Of a stretch of DNA of 64,000 bases, positions 4,754 through 39,959 are shown in pieces (the first letter of the stretch is position 1; each line of letters starts with the position of its first letter). The notes under the pieces were generated by a model that did not search any database, was not told the DNA's origin, and saw nothing but the letters and a program-made list of their open reading frames with translations. The DNA is from Candidatus Saccharimonadota bacterium (GTDB lineage Bacteria > Patescibacteriota > Saccharimonadia > Saccharimonadales > UBA4665), in NCBI GenBank assembly GCA_003164595.1, contig PLTT01000013.1, forward strand, positions 4,481 through 68,480. Reading direction: 5' to 3'. The position numbers were made by a program, and so were the translations under genes.

Positions 4754-5691
4754 GGCATTACCATCCCATTTATGTCACGTGCCTTGGGATTATTTATAGT
4801 TGTTACCGAGTCAATTGATTGGGTGCTGTCCTCGCTAGGGGACATATATTTATAGACTATAGAATTATATAAATCAGGCGAAACGTTCGAATAATGGGCT
4901 ACCTTATTATATTGGCTTGGCTTGGTCAGTTGATTGTAGGTAGCCACAGTTAGTTTTTTGGGTGACGCACTTAATTGTCTAATCCAATTAACATAGTCGC
5001 GGTTGGAACTGGCCTTAACTGTGAATGTCATACCGGAAAATCCCTCACCACTTATGTTAGCTGACGATCCATTAAATATACCATCTTTCGTGGCCATTAA
5101 ATTTAGTTGGGTGGACATACCTGGCATTGCGTAAATTTGACCACCGAGCTGGGGTATCCAAAACGAATTCATTGGGGCGTCAGAAGTAATCTCGAAATTT
5201 ATAGGTGTATTGGTTGGAATTTCAAAATTATTAATTGAGGCAACTTGGTCGTTTGGGTAGATAAACAACCACTTCCAGTCCAACGCCACAACTTGGATGT
5301 TTATTGTCTTATTATCAGAAGCTATTGGTTTATATGGGTCTAGCGAATGGGACGATGTCCATGCCACGACGGATAAGATTAGAATTATGCCAGAAGGTAT
5401 TAACCACCAGATAGCTTCAGCTACAGCGTTATGATCTAGGTTTGGCGAGTACTTGGATTTTGTATTGGTTTCTCTGTACCTAAAAGCAAAGACACCTAAA
5501 AGCGTAAATACCGGAATGACAACTATTAAGGATAACCCCAAGGCAAAATATATAAGATTTCGTTCTTTTAAAGCAATTGGGCCTGCCGGATCAAGAACGG
5601 CTATGTTGGTATGGTGCAGATACCAGGCCGAAATTCCAACAGAGGCAATTAACAAGATTGAAATTACCCCGATTTTTAGTTTTTTATTCAT
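4750..5691 (-). CDS. cyoA: Cytochrome o ubiquinol oxidase subunit II (no CuA ligands)
   Basis: 313 aa with N-terminal TM helices and a cupredoxin-like domain (FWIPQLGGQIYAMPGM). The CuA CxExCGxxHxxM site is replaced by SSANISGEGFSGM with no Cys, which indicates the quinol-oxidase type. Confidence 0.85.
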   Translation of the reverse strand: MNKKLKIGVISILLIASVGISAWYLHHTNIAVLDPAGPIALKERNLIYFALGLSLIVVIPVFTLLGVFAFRYRETNTKSKYSPNLDHNAVAEAIWWLIPSGIILILSVVAWTSSHSLDPYKPIASDNKTINIQVVALDWKWLFIYPNDQVASINNFEIPTNTPINFEITSDAPMNSFWIPQLGGQIYAMPGMSTQLNLMATKDGIFNGSSANISGEGFSGMTFTVKASSNRDYVNWIRQLSASPKKLTVATYNQLTKPSQYNKVAHYSNVSPDLYNSIVYKYMSPSEDSTQSIDSVTTINNPKARDINGMVMP

Positions 5692-18754: not shown

Positions 18755-18831
<77 letters not shown>

Positions 18832-18844
18832 TTGTTATGGCCGG

Positions 18845-18918
18845 GGCGCGGTGGCCGAGGAGTTAGGCAAAGGTCTGCAAAACCTTGTACACGAGTGCGA
18901 ATCTCGTCCGCGCCTCCA
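18845..18918 (+). tRNA. tRNA-Cys (anticodon GCA), CCA encoded
   Basis: Acceptor GGCGCGG/CCGCGCC with discriminator U73. Anticodon arm is AAGGU-CUGCAAA-ACCUU and the T arm is ACGAG-UGCGAAU-CUCGU. The T-loop has G where U55 is expected, which lowers confidence slightly. Confidence 0.78.
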
Positions 18919-18940
18919 AATTAACAATCATAAGCAAATC

Positions 18941-19028
18941 GGGCGAGTGGCGGAATTGGTATACGCGACGGACTTAAAATCCGTTGGTCTTAACAACCTT
19001 GTGGGTTCAAGTCCCACCTCGCCCACCA
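18941..19028 (+). tRNA. tRNA-Leu (anticodon UAA), type II with long variable arm, CCA encoded
   Basis: Acceptor GGGCGAG/CUCGCCC. Anticodon arm is ACGGA-CUUAAAA-UCCGU, with a long variable arm and T arm GUGGG-UUCAAGU-CCCAC. Confidence 0.9.
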
Positions 19029-19036
19029 GGAAAATA

Positions 19037-20485
19037 ATGAAGACAAACTATTATATAACAACATCGATACCTTATCTTAACGGGCAGCCCCATTTGGGAC
19101 ATGCCCTAGAATTTGTCATGGCTGACGTTTTAGCTCGATCAGCTCGCCAAAATGGACACCCCACAATATTTAGTACAGGCACAGACGAGCACGGGGCAAA
19201 AGTTGCTCAAGCCGCAGCGGCTAGTAAGATGACCCCACAGGCATATTGTGATCACTTAAGCCTAGAGTTTAAGCACTTACTAAAACTGCTTGGCATAAGT
19301 GCCGATCGTTTTATCCGGACAACGGACGCAAATCACGAGAAGCGAGCTGGGCTGATATGGAAAGCCTTATCTAAGGACATTTACAAAGATCAGTACACGG
19401 GCTGGTACGACGTCAAGCAAGAAGAATTTATACCAATAGGTAAGGCAGACCCTGAGCGAATGAAGCCTGAGCACCCACAGGCTTATCAACGCCTTGAAGA
19501 AGAAAATTATTTCTTTCGGCTGAGCAAATATAACGATCAGATAAAAAAGGCCATATTATCAAACAGCTTTCAAATACTCCCTCAAACGCGCCGTAATGAA
19601 ATCTTATCTTTGCTGGAAGAAGGGTTGGAGGACATCAGTATATCTAGGCCTAAAGATCAGCTAGAATGGGGCATAGCCGTACCTGGCGACACCACCCAGG
19701 TTATGTATGTCTGGCTTGAGGCTCTAATGAACTACATAACAGTACTAAATTACCCCGAAGGCAGTGATTTTAAGGACTTTTGGCCAGCTAATGTTCAAGT
19801 AGTAGGCAAGGATATTCTGCGCTTTCATGGTGCCATCTGGCCGGCGATGTTATTGGCTCTTGGTTTACCATTGCCAAAAACTCTTTTTGTTCATGGTTTC
19901 ATAACTGTTGAGGGGCAGACAATGAGTAAGTCGGTCGGCAATGGCATACATCCCAAAGAGATAGTCAATAAGTATGGTCTAGACGCCTTTCGTTACTATT
20001 TCCTGCGACATATACCATCTTATGATGATGGGGACTTTAGCTGGCAAACTTTTGATGCCGCCTATAACAATGAATTAGCCAACGAGCTAGGTAACGCTGT
20101 ACAAAGAACAGTAGTAATGATTGAAAAATATCAAGATAGCGTGATTGGCACAATACCGCCTGCCACGCATGACAATGCCGCCATTGCCAAGGCGATTGAA
20201 CTCTGTAAGTTTGATCGAGCCCTGGATGAAATCTGGCAGCAGGTAAGGGGACTTAATCAATATATCGACGAAGAAAAACCCTGGGAGATTGCCAAGGCTA
20301 AAGACAAGGATCATCTTCAAGAAGTATTGGCCTATCAAGTTAGCTGCTTAATGGAAATTGCCGATTTATTGACACCATTCTTGCCAGAGACAGCCTCTAA
20401 AATTCAAGGCATCTTTAACTCTGAAAAGGTAAAGCCATTACCAACCACCCTATTCCCTAAACTAGATATACCCGAAAAGCAGTAG
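19037..20485 (+). CDS. metG: Methionine--tRNA ligase
   Basis: The true start is MKTNYYITTSIPYLNGQPHLGH (HIGH motif) at the ATG at 19037. The KMSKS motif appears as TMSKSVGN. The upstream 62 codons of the track ORF are tRNA genes. Confidence 0.9.
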   Translation: MKTNYYITTSIPYLNGQPHLGHALEFVMADVLARSARQNGHPTIFSTGTDEHGAKVAQAAAASKMTPQAYCDHLSLEFKHLLKLLGISADRFIRTTDANHEKRAGLIWKALSKDIYKDQYTGWYDVKQEEFIPIGKADPERMKPEHPQAYQRLEEENYFFRLSKYNDQIKKAILSNSFQILPQTRRNEILSLLEEGLEDISISRPKDQLEWGIAVPGDTTQVMYVWLEALMNYITVLNYPEGSDFKDFWPANVQVVGKDILRFHGAIWPAMLLALGLPLPKTLFVHGFITVEGQTMSKSVGNGIHPKEIVNKYGLDAFRYYFLRHIPSYDDGDFSWQTFDAAYNNELANELGNAVQRTVVMIEKYQDSVIGTIPPATHDNAAIAKAIELCKFDRALDEIWQQVRGLNQYIDEEKPWEIAKAKDKDHLQEVLAYQVSCLMEIADLLTPFLPETASKIQGIFNSEKVKPLPTTLFPKLDIPEKQ

Positions 20486-28554: not shown

Positions 28555-29604
28555 CTAAAGAACAACGTAGTCAAAACCGAAAGTGGTGCTAGCTGGTGCT
28601 GCGGAATCACTGCATATGCTGAAATTTGTTGTAGCCCGAGTAATATAATAGGCGAGCCCTCCGGCAGCACTGCCGACCGGAGTTATAACTACGTATGGTG
28701 TTGCAGAAAAGCTATGAGCGAAAGTTACCGTTATAAAGCAGCCTGCTCCGGGAGAACTGCCAGTATTAATTGTGACGGCTCCAGCAGTGTCTGTTCCGCT
28801 AAGTGAAACAGTACCTCCGTTACCAAGGGCACTACCGCCAGGACTGGGGTTTGGCGAGGTGCCAGAGACTAGTATGTGGCTTGCAATTGTTAGATCGTCG
28901 CTAAGGTCAAGGCTCTGTACTATAAGTTGATTGGCCGTAACAGTGCCGCTGAAACTCGATGCGCCACTGACGTCCAGAGTATTGTTGATTGCAACTTGTC
29001 CTTGTATAGAAGCATTGCCTGACACTGAGAGTTTGCCGGCTTGTATCTGTGCAATGTTGGCTGTTCCAGAAACAGTTACGGAAGAAAGATTCAAGGCCGA
29101 GCTAACATTAATTGTTCCAGCTACGTCCAAATCCTTACGGATTAGCACTTGTCCGCTAAAAATTGAATTAGGCTCAATATTTAGTACCTGATCTGAGCTA
29201 CCAATGGTCGTTGACCCAGAAGCCAATAACTCTAATTGACTAGCGCTGAGGTTTTGTGGCTTTATAGTGTTTTGGCTGGAACCTGAAGGGGTTTTAATAA
29301 AGGCAATGACCGTAACCGCAATACCTATTGTTATAACTAACCCAAAAATCAAGAGATAAACATTTATTCGCTGGAGTATGTCAGATATATGATTTTTCTT
29401 TGTCTCGGCTGCTGCCGGAGTAGGCGTACCCTCTGTAGTAGACCTAGCTTCGATCTCGTCTGATCTGACGGACTTTATTTCACCCTGTCCTGGGGTTGGG
29501 TCAGTGGCCTTGGGTTCTGCCGGCGCGGGAGCATTATTTAAACCAATCCCCTCTAAGGACTCTGTCTGCTCGTTTGGTTGTTGTGGTGGGGCTGGTGGTT
29601 CCAT
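28555..29604 (-). CDS. Type II membrane-anchored surface protein with beta-helix-like repeats and a possible lectin-like C-terminal domain
   Basis: Pro/Glu-rich N-terminus, one TM (INVYLLIFGLVITIGIAVTVIAFI), then repeats of the type L.VSG.A.I.G.V (LNLSSVTVSGTANIAQIQAGKLSVSGNASIQGQVAINNTLDVSGASSFSGTVTAN). It is divergent from the paralog array. Confidence 0.6.
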   Translation of the reverse strand: MEPPAPPQQPNEQTESLEGIGLNNAPAPAEPKATDPTPGQGEIKSVRSDEIEARSTTEGTPTPAAAETKKNHISDILQRINVYLLIFGLVITIGIAVTVIAFIKTPSGSSQNTIKPQNLSASQLELLASGSTTIGSSDQVLNIEPNSIFSGQVLIRKDLDVAGTINVSSALNLSSVTVSGTANIAQIQAGKLSVSGNASIQGQVAINNTLDVSGASSFSGTVTANQLIVQSLDLSDDLTIASHILVSGTSPNPSPGGSALGNGGTVSLSGTDTAGAVTINTGSSPGAGCFITVTFAHSFSATPYVVITPVGSAAGGLAYYITRATTNFSICSDSAAPASTTFGFDYVVL

Positions 29605-29701: not shown

Positions 29702-30469
29702 ATGCATAAGTGGCGGAGAATAATTACTATAGTTATTGTTGGAATACTAATTCCGTTCGGCAGTTTTGGTATAGCTGGGGCTACTGTTTACACGTCGCCA
29801 CATTACGAAGTGAACCAAGTCTTCTTTGGTAGTGGCGGGGGCCTAAGCTCCAGCACGAATTATGAATCAAAAATCGCTATTGGCGAGGTTGGGGTAGGTA
29901 ATACCAAGGACTCAACTTATCAAGCAGATTCTGGTTTTAATACTAACGATGCTCCTTATCTTCAGTTTACAGTGACTAGCTCGGCAACTAGTCTTGGTAC
30001 GCTCTCTACGACGTCCGTAGCAACTGCGACAGGAACTTTCTCAGTCAAGGACTATCTATCACAGGGTTATGTCGTTGAGCTAGCTAGTCCACCGCCAGCG
30101 ACTGCATCGCACACTCTTACAGCCCTATCTTCGCCTACACTGTCAACGCCCGGGACGGAACAATTTGGTATCAATCTGGTTGCCAACACTAGCCCTAGCG
30201 AGGGAGCAATACCGGTTCAGAACCCAAGTAACACTTATAGCTTCGGCTCAGTTACCGCTGGCGCGTCTGGTCCTAATGGGACAACCGTTGCGGCTGGCTA
30301 TAGCAGCCCAAACCATTTTAAATATAATCAAGGAGATATAATCGCCGCCTCCAATCAGAGCTCCGGTGAAACGGATTACACGATATCTTACATTATGAAT
30401 ATAACCAACACCACGACAGCCGGTAACTATACATTCAACCAAGTGCTCATTGCATTACCGACTTATTAG
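29702..30469 (+). CDS. Secreted surface protein, short divergent member of the tandem family (member 0)
   Basis: Signal peptide ...GIAGA then TVY. T/S/A/G-rich. The C-terminal half aligns by eye with that of 36913..37983 (LQFTV/LEFCV, EQFGINLVAN/DQFGLNLRAD). It ends in an aromatic residue (..ALPTY). Confidence 0.7.
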   Translation: MHKWRRIITIVIVGILIPFGSFGIAGATVYTSPHYEVNQVFFGSGGGLSSSTNYESKIAIGEVGVGNTKDSTYQADSGFNTNDAPYLQFTVTSSATSLGTLSTTSVATATGTFSVKDYLSQGYVVELASPPPATASHTLTALSSPTLSTPGTEQFGINLVANTSPSEGAIPVQNPSNTYSFGSVTAGASGPNGTTVAAGYSSPNHFKYNQGDIIAASNQSSGETDYTISYIMNITNTTTAGNYTFNQVLIALPTY

Positions 30470-30526
30470 TCGACTTATTACTGTCTAATAAAAAACGCTT
30501 ATGATACGCTTATAAGGTAGAGGGTT

Positions 30527-31786
30527 TTGAGCAAAATTATGAGGTACTATCCTAGAACGCGTGGGAGAATATTCTACAGGGGCGCACTGCTTACTGTCGC
30601 GTTTGTGGTGGCTATCTTTGGGCTTTTGGAAGCTAGACCATTAAGTAAAGTTGATGCGGCTCAAATTACTACTCGTAGTATTACTATGAGTAGTTCAAAC
30701 GCTGCTGCCGCTGCCAATAGTAATACTTATCAAATTCGCTTTACCGCCGCTTCGAGCTATACGGTCAAAGCCATAGTTGTAGATTTTTGTTCCAATGATC
30801 CAATTGTTGGTGATGCAACTTGTACGGCTCCAACCGGTTTCGATGTTGGTGGCGCAACTCCAACAATAATTACAAGTTCCGGAACCGACCCGACTCTTTC
30901 TGCGACCCTAGGGACAGGCTGGACAGGAGCAGGCACAAACCTAATTACTGGATCTCAGTACAGAACACTTACCATAACAAACTCTACGGGTGTGGCGGTA
31001 ACCAGTGCTTCGGTAGTCTCTTTTGATATGTCAAACGTTACTAACCCAACTACGGTAGGTTCATTTTATGCACGAATCCTAACCTACACAACCACTACGA
31101 CGGGCTATGCTCCAGGCTCAGAAGGTAGCTACAGCGACTATGGTGGCGTGGCTTTGTCAACAGCCGCCCTCATTACTATTACTTCCAGAGTGCAGGAGCA
31201 ACTCAGCTTCTGTGTCTATATAAGTTCCTGTGGTACCGCCGCTACCCTCAATCTAGGTGACTCTCACGATGTTCTATCTACCACGGCACCTGCCATCGCC
31301 GCCGGTGCAACTTACGGCGTATATTACAGTCTCAGTACCAATGCCTCGCATGGAGCAATGGTCTATCTTAAGGGCAGTACATTAACGTCTGGGGCATATA
31401 CTATACCTGCAGCTGGATCATCAGCGTTTACCTACAGCGGAGTTAACAATGATTTCTTTGGGCTTTGTACGTATAACTCTGCCCTCACCGCTGGGTCAGC
31501 ACCAACAGTTATTGGTGAATATCAAGGAGTTGGTGCTGGCGGAACCTGTGCTGGCGCAACCAATAACTCTGGCGGAACTCTTTCAACAACAAATCTTGGA
31601 ACGCCTTATGCGACCTTTGGTTTCAACAGCACCAACACAGGTTCTACCTATGGTGACCAGCTAGCTTCGATTGCTGCTCCTGGATCATCAGTTAATGCTA
31701 TAGTACTCGCCGCAGGTGTTAACGCAACCCAAGGCGACGGTATTTATTCGACCACACTACAGCTAATAGCCACCGGGGCTTATTAG
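30527..31786 (+). CDS. Secreted two-domain surface protein, tandem family member 1
   Basis: Signal peptide ..KVDA then AQITTRS. Family motifs VVDFCSNDPIVGDATCTAPTGF, VTNPTTVGSFYARILTY, DYGGVALS, VQEQLSFCVYISSCGT and NLGDSHDVLSTTAP; ends GIYSTTLQLIATGAY. Start is TTG at 30527 or ATG at 30539. Confidence 0.8.
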   Translation: MSKIMRYYPRTRGRIFYRGALLTVAFVVAIFGLLEARPLSKVDAAQITTRSITMSSSNAAAAANSNTYQIRFTAASSYTVKAIVVDFCSNDPIVGDATCTAPTGFDVGGATPTIITSSGTDPTLSATLGTGWTGAGTNLITGSQYRTLTITNSTGVAVTSASVVSFDMSNVTNPTTVGSFYARILTYTTTTTGYAPGSEGSYSDYGGVALSTAALITITSRVQEQLSFCVYISSCGTAATLNLGDSHDVLSTTAPAIAAGATYGVYYSLSTNASHGAMVYLKGSTLTSGAYTIPAAGSSAFTYSGVNNDFFGLCTYNSALTAGSAPTVIGEYQGVGAGGTCAGATNNSGGTLSTTNLGTPYATFGFNSTNTGSTYGDQLASIAAPGSSVNAIVLAAGVNATQGDGIYSTTLQLIATGAY

Positions 31787-31811
31787 TTGTCGTTATTACA
31801 ACAATATCTAT

Positions 31812-31840
31812 TTGTATATGCGTAAGCATTACTGTATAAA
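31812..31840 (+). promoter_or_regulatory. Sigma70-like promoter, copy 1 of a duplicated promoter-leader
   Basis: TTGTAT (31812-31817), a 17-nt spacer ATGCGTAAGCATTACTG, then TATAAA (31835-31840). AAGGAGA RBS and a GTG start at 31868 follow. A near-identical unit lies at 34353. Confidence 0.55.
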
Positions 31841-31867
31841 TTGTACATAGGTAAGGAGAACAAACAG

Positions 31868-33103
31868 GTGAGTTTTGGCAAATTCAGATATCGTAGCGTC
31901 ACTGCAGTTGTAATTATGGTAATGCTACTAGTTTTAGCAGGACCAAATTTTCTTTCTTCGTTTAAGGTACACGCCGTAGATGGTCAGATTACCTCACGTT
32001 CCATTCAGATGGGGGATGATAGCTCTAACACTAGCGGCGGTACAACTAAATACCAGGTGACTTTCAAGCCATATACTTCCGCAACCATTTACGGTGTAAT
32101 TGTCGATTTCTGTAACACTGACCCAATTCCTGGCGATGTTTGTACCGCTCCAACAGGCTTTAGTGACTACGTTACTACTGCCTCAGCTTCAAACGTTAGC
32201 GGGCTATCGGGGACTTGGGTGGCCGCACAAGCTAATTCTGGTCGAACTTTTGAGTACACCAACGCGAGCGGTCAGTCTATGCCGACCTCTACTGCTGTCT
32301 CGTTTGCGATTAACAATGTTACTAACCCAACTGTTGTCGGTACTTTCTATGCACGTATTTTTACATTCAACTCTAACTCTGGGGCCGGTAGCGCCACGCA
32401 GTGGCTTACGACGGCTAATGGTACTGATATTACCAATGATTTTGATTACGGTGGAATTGCCTTGTCAGTTGCTGCTACGATTAACGTCACTTCAAAGGTT
32501 CAGGAACAAATTACTTTCTGTGTCTATATTAGTTCCTGTGGCACCGCCGCTACCGTTAACCTGGGTGACTCTCACGATGTCCTATCTACCACGGCACCCG
32601 CTGTGGCCTCTGGTGCGACCTATGGAGTCTTCTATAGTCTTAGCACTAACGCGTCCAATGGTGCAGTGGTTTATTTGAAAGGTGCTACATTGACCTCTGG
32701 AGCTAATACCATCCCTGCAGCGGGCGCAACACCCTATTTATATAGTGGTACTAATAACGATTTCTTTGGGCTTTGTTCGTACAACTCGGCCGTTACCGTT
32801 GGATCAGCTCCAACGATTCCCTCATCGGAATATCAAGGAACGTCTAATGGTGGCACCTGTTCAGGATTAGCTACACTATCTGACGTTAATACAACCCAGA
32901 CGACGGCAGCTCTTGGGGCGACCTATGCGACCTTTGGCTTTAACAGCACCAACACAACATCTACCTATGGTGATGAGCTAGCCGCTATCACTGCTCCTGG
33001 CGCGTCAGTTAATGCTGTCGTGTTGGCAGCCGGCGTAAGCGTAACCCAAGCTTCTGGTGTTTATACGACAACATTACAACTAATTGCCACAGGCACCTAT
33101 TAA
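31868..33103 (+). CDS. Secreted two-domain surface protein, tandem family member 2
   Basis: GTG start 8 nt after AAGGAGA (the track ORF begins at the TTG at 31841). Signal peptide ..KVHA then VDGQITSRSIQMGDD. Carries all family motifs and ends GVYTTTLQLIATGTY. Confidence 0.8.
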   Translation: MSFGKFRYRSVTAVVIMVMLLVLAGPNFLSSFKVHAVDGQITSRSIQMGDDSSNTSGGTTKYQVTFKPYTSATIYGVIVDFCNTDPIPGDVCTAPTGFSDYVTTASASNVSGLSGTWVAAQANSGRTFEYTNASGQSMPTSTAVSFAINNVTNPTVVGTFYARIFTFNSNSGAGSATQWLTTANGTDITNDFDYGGIALSVAATINVTSKVQEQITFCVYISSCGTAATVNLGDSHDVLSTTAPAVASGATYGVFYSLSTNASNGAVVYLKGATLTSGANTIPAAGATPYLYSGTNNDFFGLCSYNSAVTVGSAPTIPSSEYQGTSNGGTCSGLATLSDVNTTQTTAALGATYATFGFNSTNTTSTYGDELAAITAPGASVNAVVLAAGVSVTQASGVYTTTLQLIATGTY

Positions 33104-33116
33104 GCGAATAATAAAA

Positions 33117-34328
33117 ATGAACACTAGACTATTTACCCAACGAATTACCCCAGCTTACGTAGTTTTCGTAATGCTACTCATGCTAACAGTACCAGTTATC
33201 TTCAGCGTCGCTAACGTACATGCAGCCGGTGGACAGGTAACAAACCGAACGCTCCAAATGGGTGACGATACTATTAACACTAGTGGCGGAACGACTAATT
33301 ATCTAGTATCTTTTAATCCGTTTTCCACCAAAACAATTTATGGTATTATTGTTGATTTTTGTAACACTGACCCAATCCCTGGCGATGTTTGTACTGCTCC
33401 AACTGGTTTTGGAGTAGGGGCCACACCAACATTTACTGCCGTAAGTGGTGTTAGCAGTAGTTGGGTAGCTGCCTCGGCCAATTCCCAGCGTACGTTTGAA
33501 CTAACCTATGCCACCGGCGCCGCTCTATCGTCCTTAACCCCAGTATCATTCTCCATTAACACTGTAACCAACCCGACTGTTGTTGGTACATTTTATGCCC
33601 GTATATTTACTTTCTCCGCTTACAGCGGCGCTGGCAGTGCAGCAGCCTGGCTAACAGCCGGTAGTACAGGTCAAGATATAACAGATAATTGGGACTACGG
33701 CGGTATTGCTCTGTCAACTGCCCAAACGGTTATTGTCACTTCCAAGGTACAGGAACAATTAACCTTTTGTGTATATATAACGATCTGCGGAACCCAGGCA
33801 ATTATTAATCTGGGTGATGCCCACGATGTACTGTCGACCACAGCTCCCTTTGTTGATAATACAACTACATATTTTCTTAGCACGAATGCCTCTCATGGAG
33901 CAGTCGTATATTTGAAAGGCGCCACTCTGACTTCCGGGACCAACACGATTCCTGCAGCTGGGGCAACACCCTTTTTGTACGGAACGCCTTCTACGAATAT
34001 AGATTTCTTCGGTATCTGCAGTTATAACACGTCTGGTATAGTGCCGACTGTTGCAACGGATTACCTAGGGACATCTAACAGTGGTAGTTGTGCAAGCACA
34101 GTAACCGATACCGGCGCAACGGCAGTTGTAACTTCCCTTGGTACTCCATATGCCACCTTTGGCTTTAATAGCACCAACACAACATCTACCTATGGTGACC
34201 TTTTGGCAACACTGGCCGTACCGGGTATTACTACTAATCAACTTGCTCTGGCAGCTGGCGTTAATTTAACTCAGCCATCGGGTATCTATACCACTACTTT
34301 ACAACTTATCGCAACCGGTAGTTATTAA
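33117..34328 (+). CDS. Secreted two-domain surface protein, tandem family member 3
   Basis: ATG at 33117 (MNTRLFTQRITPAYVV..) avoids overlap with member 2. Signal peptide ..NVHA then AGGQVTNRTLQMGDD. Ends GIYTTTLQLIATGSY. Confidence 0.8.
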   Translation: MNTRLFTQRITPAYVVFVMLLMLTVPVIFSVANVHAAGGQVTNRTLQMGDDTINTSGGTTNYLVSFNPFSTKTIYGIIVDFCNTDPIPGDVCTAPTGFGVGATPTFTAVSGVSSSWVAASANSQRTFELTYATGAALSSLTPVSFSINTVTNPTVVGTFYARIFTFSAYSGAGSAAAWLTAGSTGQDITDNWDYGGIALSTAQTVIVTSKVQEQLTFCVYITICGTQAIINLGDAHDVLSTTAPFVDNTTTYFLSTNASHGAVVYLKGATLTSGTNTIPAAGATPFLYGTPSTNIDFFGICSYNTSGIVPTVATDYLGTSNSGSCASTVTDTGATAVVTSLGTPYATFGFNSTNTTSTYGDLLATLAVPGITTNQLALAAGVNLTQPSGIYTTTLQLIATGSY

Positions 34329-34352
34329 ATCCCTAGCTTCTCTTAAAAGTAG

Positions 34353-34381
34353 TTGCATATGCGTAAGCATTACGCTATAAA
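34353..34381 (+). promoter_or_regulatory. Sigma70-like promoter, copy 2 of a duplicated promoter-leader
   Basis: TTGCAT (34353-34358), a 17-nt spacer ATGCGTAAGCATTACGC, then TATAAA (34376-34381). GGGGAGAACAAACA and a TTG start at 34412 follow. Confidence 0.55.
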
Positions 34382-34411
34382 CTATAGGTATATATTAGGG
34401 GAGAACAAACA

Positions 34412-35617
34412 TTGAGTTTTGGCTCATTCACAGGACGCATTATTCCGGCATACATGGCATTTCTAGTGTTATTCATGCTACTTATACCGGCTCTTCTATT
34501 GACAGATAGGGTTACTGCTGCCGGTGGACAGGTACAATCCCGCTCTATCCAAATGGGTGACGACACGATTACCACTAGCGGTGGTACGACCAAATATCTT
34601 GTAACCTTTAATCCGGCATCAACTAAAACTATTTATGGGGTTATAGTGGATTTCTGTAACACTGACCCTATCCCGGGTGATGTGTGTACCGCACCAACTG
34701 GCTTTAGCGTCGGCTCTGGATCATATACGGCCGTTAGTGGTGTTTCGTCGAGTTGGACTGGTACCAGCACTAACAGTGGCCGTACATTTGAGTTAACCTA
34801 TGCCACTGGGTCTGCTTGGACGTCAGCGACTACCGTTTCCTTCTCGATTAACGGTGTCACTAACCCTACGGTAGTAGATACTTTCTATGCCAGAATATTA
34901 ACTTTCTCGGCAACCAGCGGCGCTGGTAGTGCCACGCAGTGGCTTACAACGACTAATGGTAGCGACAATACCAATGATTGGGACTATGGCGGTATAGCTC
35001 TTTCGACAATACAAACAATTATCGTCACTACTAAGGTTCAGGAACAACTTACTTTCTGCGTATATATTACGTCCTGCGGTACCCAGGCATCGATAAATCT
35101 CGGTGATGCCCATGACGTGCTATCGACTACGGCACCTGCTGTTGATAACACCACTACTTATAGCATTGTTACCAATGCGTCGCATGGGGCAGTCGTTTAT
35201 TTGAAAGGCTCTACCTTAACATCTGGCTCTAATACCATCCCAGCAGCGGGCGCAACAGCCTTTTTGTACGGGACACCCTCGACAAATATAGATTTCTTTG
35301 GCGTTTGTAGTTATAACACCTCTGGTGAGGTGCCGACTGTGGCAACTTCATATCTAGGCACTTCGAACGGCGGTACTTGTGCTGGTACTGTCACTGACAC
35401 CGGGATAACAGCAGCACTAAGCTCCCTAGGTTCTCCATATGCCACTTTTGGCTTTAATAGCACCAACACAACATCTACCTATGGCGACCTTCTGGCAACT
35501 CTGGCTACAGCAGGGGCAAGCGTGAATCAAATTGCTCTGGCCGCAGGGGCAAACCTAACTCAACCGTCGGGTATTTATTCAACCACCTTACAGCTTATCT
35601 GTACCGGCACGTACTAG
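34412..35617 (+). CDS. Secreted two-domain surface protein, tandem family member 4
   Basis: TTG start. Signal peptide ..RVTA then AGGQVQSRSIQMGDD. Carries the family motifs and ends GIYSTTLQLICTGTY. Confidence 0.8.
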   Translation: MSFGSFTGRIIPAYMAFLVLFMLLIPALLLTDRVTAAGGQVQSRSIQMGDDTITTSGGTTKYLVTFNPASTKTIYGVIVDFCNTDPIPGDVCTAPTGFSVGSGSYTAVSGVSSSWTGTSTNSGRTFELTYATGSAWTSATTVSFSINGVTNPTVVDTFYARILTFSATSGAGSATQWLTTTNGSDNTNDWDYGGIALSTIQTIIVTTKVQEQLTFCVYITSCGTQASINLGDAHDVLSTTAPAVDNTTTYSIVTNASHGAVVYLKGSTLTSGSNTIPAAGATAFLYGTPSTNIDFFGVCSYNTSGEVPTVATSYLGTSNGGTCAGTVTDTGITAALSSLGSPYATFGFNSTNTTSTYGDLLATLATAGASVNQIALAAGANLTQPSGIYSTTLQLICTGTY

Positions 35618-35701
35618 CCGTAGTAATTAATACATTATATAACTTGCAATTATTTGCTATTAGGTATAAATTCTAGTTAGGAACTATAAAAACAAAAATA
35701 A

Positions 35702-36895
35702 ATGAAAATGACCTTTAATCGGATTACTCCAGCCTACGTGGTTATAGTACTACTAACTGTTCTGCTCGCCCCAACATTTCTATTAACAGGGGGAAAAGTT
35801 CATGCTAGTCCTGGTCAAATTCAGTTCCGCTCTATTCAGATGAGTGATGACACTGTTAATACCAGTGGCTCAACAGCTAACTATAATGTTCAGTTTAATA
35901 CTGCTACTGCCGGAGCTATCGGAGCGATTGTTGTTGATTTTTGTAATACCGACCCAATACCAGGCGATACGTGCGTAGCCCCAGTAGGTTTTACCCTAAC
36001 TGGTGCTAGCTATATTTCAGGGACAAATACCTCTGGTTATACGGTTAACACCGCTAACTCTGGAAGGACTTTTGAGATATCCAATGCCGGTGCCTCTAGC
36101 TTACCATCAGCCACTACAGTCTCATTCGCTATTACAGGGGTTACTAACCCTACTGTTGTCGGGACATTCTATGCTCGTATATTCACTTTTGCATTGCCTG
36201 GTGATGCAGCTACCTGGATAGCCGCCGCAGCAGACGGTAGCACGACAACAGGTTATGTCGACTACGGTGGCATAGCCCTTTCAACAGTACAAACAATCCT
36301 AGTAACTTCTAAAATACAGGAACAGATTAGCTTCTGTGTTTATATAGTTACTTGTGGAACTCAAGCCGCCATTAACTTAGGTGACTCGCATGATGTATTA
36401 TCAATATCTGCACCTTTTGCGGATAACACGACTACTTATTACCTTAGTACTAATGCTTCTCATGGCGCCGTAATCAACCTAAAAGGCAATACTCTTCAAT
36501 CCGGCACTAATAGCATCCCTGCTGCAGGAACGACACCCTACCTTTATGGTACCCCTTCGACCAATATTAACTTCTTTGGAATGTGTAGTTATACTACCTC
36601 GGGCGAAGTACTAACAGTTGCTACGGACTATGTGGGCAACTCTAACGGCGGTAGCTGTGCTAGCGTCGTAACCGATACTGGTGGGACGGCAGTTATAACT
36701 TCCCTTGGAACACCATATGCCACCTTTGGCTTTAACGCTACGGCTACAACTTCCACGTACGGCGACCTACTAGCTACTATGCCCGTAGCTGGTGCTACTA
36801 TTGGCCAGGTTGTTCTGGCCGCTGGGGTAAACGTAACTCAGCCATCTGGCATCTATACCACTACCCTACAATTGATAGCAATTGGTACTTACTGA
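35702..36895 (+). CDS. Secreted two-domain surface protein, tandem family member 5
   Basis: Signal peptide ..KVHA then SPGQIQFRSIQMSDD. Contains VVDFCNTDPIPGDTCVAPVGF and IQEQISFCVYIVTCGT. Ends GIYTTTLQLIAIGTY. Confidence 0.8.
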   Translation: MKMTFNRITPAYVVIVLLTVLLAPTFLLTGGKVHASPGQIQFRSIQMSDDTVNTSGSTANYNVQFNTATAGAIGAIVVDFCNTDPIPGDTCVAPVGFTLTGASYISGTNTSGYTVNTANSGRTFEISNAGASSLPSATTVSFAITGVTNPTVVGTFYARIFTFALPGDAATWIAAAADGSTTTGYVDYGGIALSTVQTILVTSKIQEQISFCVYIVTCGTQAAINLGDSHDVLSISAPFADNTTTYYLSTNASHGAVINLKGNTLQSGTNSIPAAGTTPYLYGTPSTNINFFGMCSYTTSGEVLTVATDYVGNSNGGSCASVVTDTGGTAVITSLGTPYATFGFNATATTSTYGDLLATMPVAGATIGQVVLAAGVNVTQPSGIYTTTLQLIAIGTY

Positions 36896-36912
36896 GGATC
36901 TAGCTAATTGCT

Positions 36913-37983
36913 ATGGCGAGAAAATACCGGCTAACAACCTATTTGTTCTGCTCCGTAGTTATATTCATAGCTTGCCTGGCGAATTTTGCCGCCGCTGATA
37001 CTAATACGCAAGTTCAAGACCGTTTTGACCAAATGGCCGATTCCTCGGCCTCGACCACCACAACCCACGACCTTGGTTTTACCTTATCTAACAACACTAG
37101 CCCCTTAGGATCTATAGAATTTCAATTTTGTTCAAATGATCCTTTGGCCGGAGAACCATGCACTGCGCCGACAGGCTTTTCAATGAGTGGCGGCATTTTA
37201 AGTAGTCAATCTGGCAACATTGGCTTTAGTATCTCACCGCTAACCTCGGCTAACGACTTAATACTCACCAGCAATTCGGCAATAACTACGCCAAGTTTAT
37301 CTCCAAATCTATATGTTATATCTAACGTAGTCAATCCGGCCGATGTCGGGACGTTTTACGTTCGTATTTATACCTATTCGTCGCTTGACGCTAGTGGTAC
37401 TCCTACTGAAACCGGTGGAGTGGCCTTGTCTACTACGACCGGATTTACTATAAGCAGTGTCGTTCCGCCATTTCTGGAATTTTGTGTCGGCGTCGTAATC
37501 TATAACAGTGACTGTTCAACAATTGATACATATATCGTAAACATGGGTGATTTCACTACCAATCAAACTTCAGCGGCAACTTCACAGTTTCTGGCCGCAA
37601 CCAATGCCACTGGCGGCTACAGTGTGAGTATGACTGGGACAACCCTAACTTCGGGCAACAATGTAGTTGCTTCGCTATCAACACCAAGCCCATCGATAAT
37701 TGGCCAAGACCAGTTCGGGTTAAACCTACGCGCTGACAATATTCCCAACGTTGGCAGTGACCCAGCGGGGCAAATATATCCTCTAAATCCTAGCCCCGTA
37801 ATAAGTAGCGATTACGACAATATCAACCGCTATACTTTTAATGACAATGCGAATTTAGTGTCAATCCCAAGACCTTCACTCCCGGTAACATACACGACTA
37901 GTTATATAACAAATATTGATCAGAATCAGCCCGTTGGAGTCTATACTACGACCATTACCTATATTTGCTTGGCTAACTTCTGA
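36913..37983 (+). CDS. Secreted surface protein, divergent tandem family member 6
   Basis: Signal peptide ..FAAA then DTNTQVQDRFDQMADSS. Contains EFQFCSNDPLAGEPCTAPTGF, VVNPADVGTFYVRIYTY, GGVALS, FLEFCVGV and DQFGLNLRADN. Ends GVYTTTITYICLANF. Confidence 0.75.
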   Translation: MARKYRLTTYLFCSVVIFIACLANFAAADTNTQVQDRFDQMADSSASTTTTHDLGFTLSNNTSPLGSIEFQFCSNDPLAGEPCTAPTGFSMSGGILSSQSGNIGFSISPLTSANDLILTSNSAITTPSLSPNLYVISNVVNPADVGTFYVRIYTYSSLDASGTPTETGGVALSTTTGFTISSVVPPFLEFCVGVVIYNSDCSTIDTYIVNMGDFTTNQTSAATSQFLAATNATGGYSVSMTGTTLTSGNNVVASLSTPSPSIIGQDQFGLNLRADNIPNVGSDPAGQIYPLNPSPVISSDYDNINRYTFNDNANLVSIPRPSLPVTYTTSYITNIDQNQPVGVYTTTITYICLANF

Positions 37984-38027
37984 TGTGTATGTTATTATTG
38001 ATTTGAATTAAGAGGTGTATTAAATCT

Positions 38028-38987
38028 ATGAGATCAAAAGTTACTTTAATAGTATTTTCAGTCATCGCTAGTTTGACATTATTCATCGCTCCTTACGCAT
38101 CAGCAGCCCCACAAGCAACTGGCTACACAATATCTCCGGTTGAGACAGAAATTACCGTCAATAAGGGTACTTCTCAAACTGTCGAGTTGTCTGTTCAAAA
38201 CCCAGCTAACACCGCAGTTGAGATTAAAGCTATTGTTAATGATTTTGTTGCAAGTAGTAACGAATCCGGTAACCCTTCTCTAATACTCAATAGCAATTCA
38301 CCAACTCCGGCCAATAATTTCGTATCATTAGTATCACCTATTCCTAACATAAATCTAGGTCCACTTGCTAAGGTATATTTCCCGGTGACTATTACTGTTC
38401 CAGTAAATGCTAATTCTGGTGGATACTATGGAGCGGTTCGCTTCTTACCAGAAAGCATAAATCAAACTGGAAATGTTGGTTTAACCGCTAGTGCTGGATC
38501 GATTTTTCTTATTACCGTTCCTGGCAATTTAGTTGAGAGGTTAAGTCTAACCCAACTATCGGCCGCCGATAGCAGTGGTAATGCCACTACTTTTCTAACA
38601 TCGGGCCCAGTATCAGTTCTTACTCGACTTGATAATACTGGCGATATCCACGTCCAACCCTTTGGTAATATTCTTATCAAGAATATGTTTGGCCATATCG
38701 TTAAGTCATATCAATTCAACAACGTTACACCCAGAGCAAACATTCTACCAGATAGCATCCGTAAGTTTATTAACCCACTAACTGGAGTTAGTTGGTTTGG
38801 AAAATATACGATAGTAGAAACCGTTGCCTATCAGCAGGGAACTGGGAATTACATAACCTCTTCTGCTACCTTCTACTACTTTCCCGTTTGGTTTTTAATC
38901 ATCGTCGTAGCTCTCGTGGTCTTACTGGCAGTCGGTATTTACTGGCTAGGCTACCGACGACGCGCTTCAGCTCCTAAACGAAAATAG
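38028..38987 (+). CDS. Membrane-anchored two-domain Ig/beta-sandwich protein (DUF916/DUF3324-like, CscA-like architecture)
   Basis: Signal peptide ..ASA then APQATGYTISPVETEITVNKGTSQTVELSVQN, followed by GGYYGAVRF. A second beta domain follows (RLDNTGDIHVQPFGNILIKNMFG), then a C-terminal TM and a basic tail YRRRASAPKRK. RBS AAGAGG. Confidence 0.7.
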   Translation: MRSKVTLIVFSVIASLTLFIAPYASAAPQATGYTISPVETEITVNKGTSQTVELSVQNPANTAVEIKAIVNDFVASSNESGNPSLILNSNSPTPANNFVSLVSPIPNINLGPLAKVYFPVTITVPVNANSGGYYGAVRFLPESINQTGNVGLTASAGSIFLITVPGNLVERLSLTQLSAADSSGNATTFLTSGPVSVLTRLDNTGDIHVQPFGNILIKNMFGHIVKSYQFNNVTPRANILPDSIRKFINPLTGVSWFGKYTIVETVAYQQGTGNYITSSATFYYFPVWFLIIVVALVVLLAVGIYWLGYRRRASAPKRK

Positions 38988-39044
38988 ACATTCTCTTTCT
39001 ATAACGCTTGCGCTATTATTAGACAGAGTGCTAAAGAAGCGTCT

Positions 39045-39959
39045 ATGAAGATATTTCAAACAAACAATAAGCCATTTCTCCGTATTCTAATAGTCATTAG
39101 TTGTTTGTTTATATTCGCCAGTAATGTACCTGTCGTTCATGCCGTAGTTAACCCGCAAAACGGTGCCGTTGGGCTAGAGGGTACAATTAACGGGCCACCA
39201 CCATCTAAGGCAGCTTCTATAGCAACGCCCGGTAATGGTCAGAGTTTTACGACACTACCTATTACCGTGTCTGGTACATGCCCCAACGGCCTATTAATTA
39301 AAGTCTATGATAACAATATATTTGCCGGCTCCGCAGAGTGCAGCAACGGTAGCTACGAGCTAAAGATAAGTTTGTTCGAAGGCGCTAATAGTCTAGTGAG
39401 TATTGACTATGATGCCCTCAATCAAGCCGGGCCTAATTCTAACACCGTTAACATTAATTACACCAGTGCCCAATTCACAAGCTTTGGGACACAGATGACC
39501 ATAAGTAGTAATTATTCCCAGCTAGGCGCGAATCCTACTCAACAGTTATCCTGGCCGATTACTATCAATGGCGGTACCGGCCCCTATGCGCTCAGCATTG
39601 ACTGGGGTGATGGAACTCCCTCTGTCCTTATGAGCGTAACCACTGCCGGTTTGCAGACCGTGACACATACCTATCAACTAGCTGGTACTTATACGGTTAC
39701 GATTCAAGGCACAGATAAAAATGGCCAACCAGCATTCTTGCAGATTGTTGCTGTTATTGCAGGCCCAGTTCAGCGTTTAGCTAGTAGTACCTCGAGTTCT
39801 ACAACATCTAAGACTGAGGTTGTTACTATATCAATTTGGGCCAAAATCGCCATGATTTGCTTGATAATATTAATTATCGTTGCTTTTTGGATCGGACGCC
39901 GTTACGAACTGCTTGCTATTATAAGAAAAGTTGAGAAGAGTGATAGATCTAACCCTTAG
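39045..39959 (+). CDS. Membrane-anchored surface protein with Ig-like and PKD-like domains
   Basis: Signal peptide ..VVHA then VVNP. Ig-like segment (LPITVSGTCPNGLLIKVYDNN..GSYELKISL). PKD-like signature IDWGDGT...VTHTYQLAGTYTVTIQGTDKNGQ (about nt 39537-39749). Ser/Thr linker, C-terminal TM and a charged tail. Confidence 0.7.
   Translation: MKIFQTNNKPFLRILIVISCLFIFASNVPVVHAVVNPQNGAVGLEGTINGPPPSKAASIATPGNGQSFTTLPITVSGTCPNGLLIKVYDNNIFAGSAECSNGSYELKISLFEGANSLVSIDYDALNQAGPNSNTVNINYTSAQFTSFGTQMTISSNYSQLGANPTQQLSWPITINGGTGPYALSIDWGDGTPSVLMSVTTAGLQTVTHTYQLAGTYTVTIQGTDKNGQPAFLQIVAVIAGPVQRLASSTSSSTTSKTEVVTISIWAKIAMICLIILIIVAFWIGRRYELLAIIRKVEKSDRSNP

Follow-up and report, generated by a model that had tools for sequence, protein, structure and literature searches.

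The nine genes at positions 29702-39959 (+ strand) of the 64,000-nt stretch analysed here (the window), which comes from an uncultured Saccharimonadia bacterium, very probably constitute a pam operon, the type of locus from which CPR bacteria build pili by donor-strand exchange, with the help of a chaperone but without an usher. For the locus proteins themselves the analysis established family membership and folds, conserved motifs and synteny; filament formation and donor-strand exchange would hold here by analogy with the homologues PamA and PamB of Ca. Mycosynbacter amalyticus. The initial annotation regarded the system as undescribed, but Pam already has a name, filament structures and curated NCBIfam models. 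Distinctive at this locus is an unusually large set of shaft subunits, with five genes in tandem.

Pam pili of CPR bacteria were published in 2026 with cryo-EM structures, and their named components are PamA, PamB, PamC, PamD, PamE, PamT and PamR (10.64898/2026.03.03.709456). The PamA and PamB filaments of M. amalyticus, documented by cryo-EM at 2.8 and 3.6 Å and by proteomic abundance, assemble without an usher through donor-strand exchange, the donated strand being the inter-domain linker (10.64898/2026.03.03.709456). The roles of the chaperones, PamT, PamE and PamR come from AlphaFold models, not from experiments, and the published models have the N-terminus of PamR inserted into PamE (10.64898/2026.03.03.709456). 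Likeness to PamA and PamB (PDB 25PZ, 25QA) was assessed through the published description and the NCBIfam models. The models NF058578 (CPR_pilus_PamR, cutoff 300 bits), NF058579 (CPR_pilus_PamT, 240 bits) and NF058581 (Pam pilin C-domain, 55 bits) belong to the June 2026 NCBIfam release.

Organisation and conservation of the locus

The locus comprises nine ORFs, each where the initial annotation had placed it: seven secreted paralogs, related to each other by BLASTP, and two proteins that carry both a signal peptide and, C-terminally, a TM helix. Signal peptides were deduced from hydrophobicity and AXA-like sites. The N-terminal hydrophobic segment is the only one in the seven paralogs (a second hydrophobic stretch of member 6 is a beta-strand region) and no LPXTG motif was found in them, in agreement with the reported lack of anchors. 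Threonine, serine, alanine, glycine and asparagine make up 48-56% of their residues, as had been noted, but "almost no charged residues" was an overstatement, as D+E+K+R amount to 6-9%. Among the scanned window ORFs, neither an usher or sortase gene nor any type IV pilus gene turned up.

The order PamT, one to five pilins, PamE-like pilin, chaperone and PamR is kept in 52 related species, so that the linkage of paralogs and anchored proteins, for which a survey had been proposed, is conserved. Across these species the wider synteny reads atpD-atpC-bactofilin-like, T-P(n)-E-C-R, mnmA, and the five variable pilins of this locus are the maximum per operon. Flanking genes encode ATP synthase subunits, mnmA, murJ, lepA, alaS and ftsA. 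The conserved divergent neighbour (28555..29604, - strand) is a membrane protein in which a low-complexity N-terminus and a single TM segment accompany a beta-helical repeat region resembling bactofilins (Pfam Bactofilin 28.6 bits, cutoff 27.9); it lies directly upstream of PamT in 51 of the 52 complete operons. A PHROGs search with this protein gave no match. It probably corresponds to the "tail fibre-like protein" that is central in the pam neighbourhood (10.64898/2026.03.03.709456). ATP synthase and "tail fibre-like" genes likewise adjoin the M. amalyticus genes, and the lineage, Saccharimonadia, is the same. The two loci differ in that M. amalyticus has two chaperone genes against one here, and in that no pilin or chaperone genes follow PamR in the present locus.

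Predicted tip, shaft and proximal subunits

The first gene (29702..30469, + strand, 255 aa) encodes PamT, the single-domain tip subunit, with 267.5 bits to NF058579, above the cutoff; it also matches NF058581 (149 bits, residues 91-255). PamT has the acceptor C-domain fold only, without linker strand or cysteines (mature mass ~23.5 kDa), and in member 6 only the C-terminal half aligns with it (24% identity, E 2e-9). Its earlier description as a short divergent relative is right as to kinship, yet it is a subunit in its own right, consisting of the C-domain alone. Member 6 (36913..37983, + strand, 356 aa; NF058581 142.5 bits, above the cutoff) is a conserved two-domain proximal pilin with a PamT-type C-domain (QFGLNL motif) and 26-33% identity to members 1-5 (E ~1e-22). 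Its family matches PamT in hhalign with 100% probability, and nearly every complete operon has a pilin of ~350 aa at this place. We call it PamE-like because of its position directly before the chaperone and PamR.

Between the two lie the shaft pilin paralogs, all on the + strand: paralog 1 (30527..31786, 419 aa; NF058581 32.7 bits), paralog 2 (31841..33103, 420 aa; 37.8 bits), paralog 3 (33084..34328, 414 aa from TTG; 43.0 bits), paralog 4 (34412..35617, 401 aa; 44.3 bits) and paralog 5 (35702..36895, 397 aa; 38.7 bits). The TTG at 33084 overlaps paralog 2 by 20 nt; the ATG at 33117 of the public gene call (L082) is the more likely start of paralog 3, giving 403 aa. With 33-44 bits the five remain under the NF058581 cutoff of 55, although this model matches all 64 relatives of member 4 (best E 4.6e-50). 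In hhalign, the variable-pilin family matches the member-6 family over its full length (100% probability, E 1e-57) and PamT over the C-domain (98.4%, E 5e-15). These profile-profile comparisons, together with a confident AF2 model of paralog 4, place members 1-5 in the same family as the Pam pilins.

The model (pLDDT 90.2) shows a beta-sandwich N-domain (strands at 5-128, mature numbering), a single linker strand (154-161) and a beta C-domain (176-362), and paralog 1 has the same layout of N-terminal beta-sandwich, linker strand and C-domain. A structure search with the full-length pilin returned generic two-Ig-domain adhesins only, at TM-scores of ~0.2. The M. amalyticus pilins share this plan of beta-sandwich N-domain, linker strand and truncated-Ig C-domain, the PamT, PamR and pilin C-domain families (curated HMMs) and paired cysteines; the shaft pilins carry three pairs, as does PamB. 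However, between PamT and PamE, M. amalyticus has one large PamA (55 kDa) and its PamB (38.7 kDa) is encoded separately, whereas here five paralogs of PamB-like size (36.6-37.8 kDa mature) and cysteine pattern occupy this place.

Every shared motif quoted in the initial annotation is present in alignment A2: VDFCNTDP, VTNPTVVGTFYARI, DYGGIALS, VQEQLTFCVYI..CGT, NLGDSHDVLS, STNASHGAVVYLKG.TLTSG.NTIPAAG, FFG.C.Y, YATFGFN and GIYTTTLQLIATGTY. The linker ranks with the best-conserved segments of the pilin family (in 91 sequences D98%, G98%, G78%, [IV], A97%, L71%, S90%, T89%). In paralog 4 it reads DYGGIALST (D191-T199; 34982..35008, + strand) and forms a beta-strand in the model; an equivalent segment is present in paralogs 1-6. 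We infer that the linker is the donor strand of these pilins.

Pairwise identity among members 1-5 ranges from 47 to 78% (BLASTP E 1e-101 to 0), with paralogs 3 and 4 the closest at 78%. By region, identity rises from the N-domain (55%) to the C-domain (69%) and the linker (73%). Because linker and C-domain are conserved while the N-domain is the main variable part, the five paralogs are probably able to co-polymerise yet present different surfaces. Alternatively, each paralog may form its own homopolymer, or the paralogs may be alternately expressed variants directed at different hosts or evasion, a reading that competes with the co-polymerisation step only. We consider this possible but the less likely course. 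The divergence of the N-domains would suit it as well, as would the long compositionally homogeneous stretches that PamA and PamB form in M. amalyticus filaments and the premature stop in paralog 1 of one natural population (otherwise unchanged over 21 kb), which indicates that paralog 1 is dispensable. Switches from PamA to PamB nevertheless occur within single filaments (10.64898/2026.03.03.709456), linker and groove motifs are common to all five paralogs, and the tightly spaced same-strand genes have no internal promoter or terminator signals above background. Rapidly switching variants, moreover, fit poorly with most paralogs being old and having orthologues in a related species (L001; 71% identity for paralog 1 and 69-70% for paralog 2). 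The suggested antigenic diversity likewise finds no support: four public copies of the locus are 99.9-100% identical, and the paralog set is largely common to the nearest relative species.

The probable membrane-anchored chaperone

The PamC/PamD-like chaperone (38028..38987, + strand, 319 aa) has two beta-sandwich domains between a signal peptide and a C-terminal TM segment (38886..38966, + strand; hydrophobic residues 279-310), which is a helix at mature residues 261-287 in the AF2 model (pLDDT 87.3, pTM 0.77). M. amalyticus likewise combines a PapD-like chaperone bearing a C-terminal TM helix with the lack of an usher. In Foldseek the best matches are the WxL-interacting protein (WxLIP) of E. 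faecium (9i25_C, E 5.7e-12; 9i1y, E ~6e-12), followed by the pilus chaperones CfaA (4ncd, 6k73_B, 4y2o) and CsuC (6fqa, 5d6h). PF06030 (DUF916) scores 23.7 bits and matches 61 of 62 chaperone family members; the PapD Pfam family was not detected by sequence search. The earlier comparison with DUF916/DUF3324 (CscA) proteins thus stands for DUF916, but DUF3324 was not detected in the second domain, unlike in WxLIP. We found the homology of the chaperone to WxL-interacting proteins in no paper.

WxL clusters of Firmicutes encode small WxL, large WxL and TM-anchored WxLIP proteins (PMC10599100, PMC9772566; PDB 9i1y, 9i25). The pam locus follows a similar logic, with a single-domain subunit, larger subunits sharing that domain C-terminally and one anchored partner; WxLIP (DUF916-DUF3324-TM) has the same two Ig domains and C-terminal TM segment, and in both systems the anchored partner is predicted to complete the subunit beta-sandwich by a loop strand. 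A WxLIP hairpin, unstructured in the AlphaFold2 monomer, becomes ordered upon binding, whereby the WxL beta-sandwich is completed (PMC10599100). The nearly invariant chaperone loop NVGLTASAGS (N149-S158; 38472..38501, + strand; alignment A4) shares residues with the one internal segment that our model predicts with low confidence (mature 121-128, TGNVGLTA); it is a candidate complementing strand and may be the equivalent of this hairpin.

The shared parts list, the WxLIP/DUF916 membership and the best structural match, a WxLIP bound to a long WxL protein, would also suit a static surface complex in which the anchored protein permanently holds single secreted subunits by completing their beta-sandwich, a role proposed for WxLIP, and no polymer forms; WxL proteins are thought to be non-polymerising, peptidoglycan-binding monomers (PMC10599100, PMC9772566). 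We regard such a complex as improbable. The locus subunits have no WxL motifs, and the proposed check for the WxL domain (PF13731) detected none. A static complex would not need the highly conserved linker strand, one chaperone gene to seven subunit genes fits a catalytic rather than a stoichiometric role, and the homologous M. amalyticus pilins form long helical filaments in cryo-EM.

PamR, the probable anchor, and the proposed assembly

In PamR (39045..39959, + strand, 304 aa; NF058578 359.5 bits, above the cutoff), the predicted RbmA-like terminator and membrane anchor, a signal peptide and a conserved N-terminal strand precede Ig-like and PKD-like domains, and a TM helix lies at the C-terminus (hydrophobic residues 257-289). 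The PKD-like assignment of this protein was correct (PKD_4, PF18911, 29.4 bits; cutoff 27), and 1247 homologues were found. The strand GAVGLEGTI (G40-I48; 39162..39188, + strand) is conserved in 79 sequences (G88%, S83%, [VI], G98%, L73%, [EQ], G93%, T74%, I74%), one of the best-conserved stretches of its family, and would fill the groove left open in the last pilin. WxL clusters have no such terminator.

The presence of tip (PamT) and terminator (PamR) subunits implies a linear polymer. This argues against a two-dimensional lattice, i.e. a surface layer, matrix or sheath, which several abundant-looking, Thr/Ser-rich, acidic secreted proteins might otherwise bring to mind and which the initial annotation gave as an alternative; profile searches detected neither S-layer families nor SLH-type anchors, and the homologues that define the family form filaments. 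We consider a lattice very unlikely.

For the pilus, we envisage that Sec exports all nine proteins and that the membrane-anchored chaperone covers the still open groove in the C-domain of every subunit that has just been exported. The fibre would begin at its distal tip with PamT, which offers only an acceptor C-domain. Two-domain pilins would then join singly, each placing its linker strand (D-x-G-G-[IV]-A-L-S-T) in the groove that the preceding subunit offers in its C-domain, which expels the chaperone. The five paralogs (30527-36895) would make up the shaft and member 6 the proximal subunit, whose groove the N-terminal strand of PamR would close, while the PamR TM helix would fasten the fibre to the membrane.

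Comparison with other fibres

Chaperone-usher pili (Pap/Fim, archaic Csu, class 5 CFA/I) likewise rely on donor-strand complementation and exchange of incomplete Ig-like subunits, comprise tip, shaft and terminator subunits, and use chaperones of the same two-domain fold (CfaA and CsuC, TM-score ~0.5, target-normalised). In contrast to these Gram-negative systems, Pam has no usher and no outer membrane, its chaperone is anchored in the cytoplasmic membrane, and the donated strand is the internal linker rather than an N-terminal extension. The Pam fibre is an extended helix, not a coiled rod (10.64898/2026.03.03.709456). TasA and archaeal cannulae (10.1101/2024.12.30.630787) are also non-covalent, beta-strand-complemented fibres of cells without an outer membrane, but have no dedicated chaperone and consist of unrelated subunit families; TasA/camelysin profiles gave no match to the locus proteins.

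The initial idea that polymerising subunits and anchored partners, one PapD-like/DUF916-like and one Ig/PKD-like, build a non-covalent pilus on a monoderm CPR cell agrees with the filaments that cryo-EM revealed in M. amalyticus. The locus extends what is known of Pam in two respects: an expansion of the shaft paralogs, and a chaperone homologous to WxL-interacting proteins of Firmicutes. The pilus most likely serves as the first contact with the host bacterium.

Assignment of the locus to the Pam system

In sequence, fold, architecture and synteny, the nine-gene locus is a Pam pilus system, of which the PamA and PamB filaments of Candidatus Mycosynbacter amalyticus have been resolved by cryo-EM at 2.8 and 3.6 Å (10.64898/2026.03.03.709456). 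The N-domain of a Pam pilin is a nine-strand beta-sandwich, joined by a single linker strand to a C-domain of truncated Ig-like fold, which takes up the linker of the neighbouring subunit; the pilins carry two or three cysteine pairs (10.64898/2026.03.03.709456). In the proposed assembly, PamT is the tip pilin, with one domain only, and PamE another pilin, PamC and PamD are PapD-like chaperones with a C-terminal TM helix, and PamR is the RbmA-like, TM-anchored terminator; neither an usher nor trans-envelope machinery is reported, and the neighbourhood includes ATP synthase genes and a "tail fibre-like" gene (10.64898/2026.03.03.709456).

All nine genes lie on the plus strand and encode PamT (member 0; 29702-30469, 255 aa), five variable shaft pilins (member 1, 30527-31786, 419 aa; member 2, 31841-33103, 420 aa; member 3, 33084-34328, 414 aa; member 4, 34412-35617, 401 aa; member 5, 35702-36895, 397 aa), a PamE-like pilin (member 6; 36913-37983, 356 aa), a chaperone (38028-38987, 319 aa) and PamR (39045-39959, 304 aa). 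The gene observation of the initial annotation is accurate, as each of its nine ORFs and all motifs it quoted as shared by the paralogs were recovered. Its functional guess, a surface fibre or surface layer of secreted subunits with two membrane-anchored Ig-fold partners, was largely right, while its description of the system as undescribed is outdated by the 2026 description of Pam. The TTG start of member 3 overlaps member 2 by 20 nt (33084-33103), and the ATG at 33117 is the likelier start; a 192-aa ORF inside paralog 2 in a different frame (32100-32678) is probably spurious.

Thr, Ser, Ala, Gly and Asn together make up 48-56% of the paralog residues, and Asp, Glu, Lys and Arg 6-9%. Each of the seven paralogs has one N-terminal hydrophobic segment, whereas the chaperone and PamR have an N-terminal and a C-terminal one. 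Members 1 to 5 share 47-78% pairwise identity (E 1e-101 to 0) and 26-33% with member 6, to the C-terminal half of which member 0 is solely alignable.

Pfam is nearly without matches for the seven paralogs. Among the curated models of NCBIfam release 20 (June 2026), member 0 matches the equivalog NF058579 ("CPR-type pilus protein PamT") over residues 6-255 with 267.5 bits (cutoff 240). The model NF058581 ("Pam pilus system pilin subunit", cutoff 55) is matched by member 0 with 149.2 and by member 6 with 142.5 bits. PamR, with a C-terminal hydrophobic segment at residues 257-289 and 1247 homologues, scores 359.5 bits against the equivalog NF058578 ("pilus system RbmA-like protein PamR", cutoff 300).

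Members 1 to 5 stay under the NF058581 cutoff (32.7-44.3 bits, E 7e-8 to 2e-11), and several lines of evidence identify them as Pam pilins. NF058581 is matched at E ≤ 0.01 by every one of the 64 member-4 family sequences (best 4.6e-50). In hhalign comparisons of family profiles made from the best 80 of 272 related loci, the variable pilins align over their full length with the member-6-like family (100% probability, E 1e-57) and over the C-domain only with the PamT family (98.4%, E 5e-15). The AF2 model of mature member 4 is all-beta (pLDDT 90.2), with N-domain strands in residues 5-128, an isolated linker strand at 154-161 and a C-domain at 176-362; the linker strand coincides exactly with the DYGGIALS motif that had been described as a hinge. 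The mature masses of 36.6-37.8 kDa and the six mature-region cysteines, arranged as three conserved pairs, liken members 1 to 5 to PamB (38.7 kDa, three pairs), and their position between PamT and the PamE-like gene is that of PamA. In Foldseek, the model of the full-length pilin matched nothing but generic adhesins with two Ig domains (SdrG, ClfB, FnBPA; TM-scores of about 0.2). Neither members 4 and 6 nor the pilin and PamT profiles gave anything relevant in sequence and profile searches of the PDB (for the PamT profile, no chain at E ≤ 10), the set searched evidently being without the filament entries 25PZ (PamA) and 25QA (PamB). The pilin family is large: of the 2094 cluster representatives recovered by an exhaustive profile search at E ≤ 1e-3, 832 also pass E ≤ 1e-30, and most matches are full-length.

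The locus lacks the defining features of classical chaperone-usher pili, sortase pili and WxL clusters. As regards the first, no outer-membrane usher was found, neither in the locus nor in those window ORFs that were scanned, and no member of the PapD families is recognised by sequence. It differs from sortase-assembled Gram-positive pili in that LPXTG is absent from all nine proteins, and no sortase gene was found among the neighbours scanned.

Operon conservation and pilin copy number

Scanned with the PamR profile, species-representative genomes yielded 272 relatives, of which the best 80 loci, almost all from Saccharibacteria or Saccharimonadales MAGs, were annotated with local HMMs; the M. 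amalyticus operon is outside those 80. The gene order is near-universal: atpD, atpC, a bactofilin-like gene on the minus strand, PamT (about 250 aa), a varying number of variable pilins (380-480 aa), a member-6-type pilin (about 350 aa), a chaperone (about 330 aa), PamR (about 300 aa) and mnmA. The window and 42 of the 52 complete operons have atpD, atpC and the bactofilin-like gene upstream, and nine more have them in part. With a single chaperone gene, as in 49 of the 52, this layout (T-P-E-C-R) is simpler than the arrangement in M. amalyticus. Two loci (L033 and L037) show the multi-chaperone order T P C P E C P R C, which is nearer to that of M. amalyticus.

One variable pilin is present in 36 of the 52 complete operons, two in 12, three in three and five in a single one, that of the window. 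Outside the 52, two loci with a split PamT likewise have expanded arrays, namely four to five variable pilins in the nearest relative species (L001) and four in L071. The locus thus adds no new principle, and shows the usual Saccharimonadia layout of PamT, pilins, PamE-like pilin, one chaperone and PamR, with a shaft-pilin copy number that ranges from one to five between species and a divergence mainly in the N-domain.

The bactofilin-like gene lies directly upstream of PamT in 51 of the 52 complete operons and is probably the "tail fibre-like protein" of the Pam paper. Its product in the window (28555-29604, minus strand) is a membrane protein with a low-complexity N-terminus and a bactofilin-like beta-helical repeat region, and its gene is transcribed divergently from PamT. 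PHROGs gave no match for this protein, the chaperone or a pilin. Downstream of mnmA, 11 of the 52 operons (L016, L018, L019, L021, L023, L027 and L028 among them) carry a second, longer PamR-like gene (345-407 aa); the window has none, and murJ follows mnmA. Three pam contigs are labelled Chlamydiae (L007), Limnocylindrales (L033) and Acidimicrobiales (P0184), and are probably mis-binned Saccharibacteria contigs rather than instances of pam outside CPR.

Elsewhere in the window, a heme-copper oxidase subunit I (COX1, E 6e-146) and a subunit II with a COX_ARM motif are encoded on the minus strand at 2741-5691, in a genome fragment of Saccharibacteria type. A tRNA cluster, Ala(GGC), Cys(GCA) and Leu(TAA), lies at 18755-19028; the mechanically called MetRS ORF (18851-20485, GTG start) overlaps it, so that its real start must be downstream.

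Divergence and variation of the shaft pilins

The shaft paralogs are on average 55% identical in the N-domain, 73% in the linker and 69% in the C-domain. The best match of each of members 1, 2, 3/4, 5 and 6 is a protein of the nearest relative species, L001 (69-76%), which indicates that the expansion predates that split and that only the duplication of members 3 and 4 is lineage-specific. To judge from these sequences, the array fits subfunctionalised shaft subunits on a conserved polymerisation core. The antigenic diversity proposed initially, if taken as a fast antigenic-variation cassette, does not fit an expansion older than the split.

Strain-level variation in pilin length was likewise considered and rejected. 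Public metagenome contigs (ENA WOOD18-1 scaffold_346, JGI, Logan), among them records in which an identical chaperone goes with differing lengths of the pilin genes, are 99.93-100% identical to the window at the DNA level, and the differences in pilin length therefore reflect only start choices of gene callers and one 15-bp deletion. This deletion, in paralog 1 (window 31584-31598; 3571-3573 in locus L081), is the sole polymorphism among the public copies, and the population carrying it (JGI 3300037207) shows no other difference from the window across 21 kb. The resulting TGA stop (...NNSGGTL*) shortens paralog 1 by about 67 residues at the C-terminus, the conserved last strand among them; either one shaft paralog is naturally knocked out here, or the deletion is an artefact of assembly. 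A promoter and terminator scan across the operon is uninformative on sub-operonic expression, as its counts were not above those in shuffled sequence.

Six long relatives of the pilins (P0184, P0325, P0415, P0418, P0432 and P0434) carry lectin or propeller modules (Kelch, BNR/sialidase-like, Laminin_G_3/ConA-like, Lcl_C) N-terminal to the Pam pilin module, and resemble tip adhesins and "large WxL" proteins. The pam operon and mnmA of another Saccharibacterium are followed directly by an RVT_1 reverse transcriptase and a bAvd accessory gene (L085, 13140-15829), which look like a diversity-generating retroelement.

The chaperone and its relation to WxL clusters

The AF2 model of the chaperone shows two beta-sandwiches followed by a TM helix at 261-287 (pLDDT 87.3, pTM 0.77). 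Its best Foldseek matches are the Enterococcus faecium WxLIP structures 9i25_C ("bound to long WxL") and 9i1y (E about 6e-12), followed by RbmA and then by CfaA (4ncd, 6k73_B, 4y2o) and CsuC (6fqa, 5d6h). The PapD families PF00345 and PF02753 match neither the window chaperone nor any of its 62 relatives, and the likeness to PapD-family chaperones is at the level of the fold only. PF06030 (DUF916/WxLIP_PGBD) is matched by 61 of the 62 relatives at E ≤ 0.01 (best 9e-12), the window chaperone itself reaching 23.7-23.9 bits (E 5e-5), below the cutoff of 27.3. Where the 647 homologues of the chaperone are named in their sources, the name is DUF916 or "WxL protein peptidoglycan domain-containing protein". 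The chaperone profile gave only E 0.28 against PDB sequences. None of the Pam models of NCBIfam for chaperones matches the window protein, and its orthology to PamC/PamD thus rests on fold and gene position.

The likeness to the WxL clusters of Firmicutes, a probable homology of the chaperone to WxLIP in sequence and structure, holds for the chaperone only. DUF3324 (PF11797) is matched by none of the 62 chaperone-family members at E ≤ 0.01, and 31 of them match fn3_5 instead. A WxL domain in the subunits was considered and rejected: neither the seven window proteins nor 41 PamT orthologues match PF13731 at E ≤ 1, the W-x-L tripeptide is absent from all seven window paralogs, and no PDB profile match was obtained. 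The Pam preprint mentions neither WxL nor DUF916, and neither term occurs in the papers listed by a literature search that combined them with CPR. The five-fold expansion of the shaft pilin and the probable homology of a Pam-type chaperone to WxLIP are the two points that go beyond the literature found.

Conserved strands and a possible mechanism

Three short segments stand out as the most conserved: the linker of the pilins (D-x-G-G-[IV]-A-L-S-T), the first mature residues of PamR (G-S-[VI]-G-L-[EQ]-G-T-I) and, in the chaperone, a loop (N-V-x-L-x-A-S-V-G-S-L) that overlaps the sole internal low-confidence stretch of its AF2 model. The C-terminal strand of the pilins is also strongly conserved, which, with the conservation of the linker, lends indirect support to the idea that these subunits may polymerise into a helical filament by donor-strand exchange. 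The three short segments follow a common small-[VI]-small-L pattern. We interpret this pattern as a sign that the three segments may be alternative occupants of one C-domain groove, which would be filled by the chaperone loop, then by the linker of the next pilin and then by the PamR strand. [quoted passage not shown]

It is conceivable, at odds we would put somewhat short of even, that Pam pili and WxL/Csc clusters are two branches of one ancient monoderm system with a shared origin and mechanism, in both of which a membrane-tethered two-Ig-domain protein of the DUF916 family would complete the beta-sandwich of a subunit. If so, the ancestry of the Pam chaperone would lie in WxLIP-type proteins and not in the PapD of Gram-negative bacteria, WxL clusters might also use chaperone-like or polymerising strand exchange, and the five-paralog array would represent a shaft of variable surface on a conserved polymerisation core.

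Pam pili are unusual in being assembled by chaperone-assisted strand exchange with neither usher nor outer membrane, of which few examples are known, and are thought to give some CPR parasites the first touch with their host bacteria. The probable homology between the chaperone and WxLIP could bear on how this system arose and on the still unsettled way in which WxL adhesion clusters work in enterococci, listeriae and lactobacilli.
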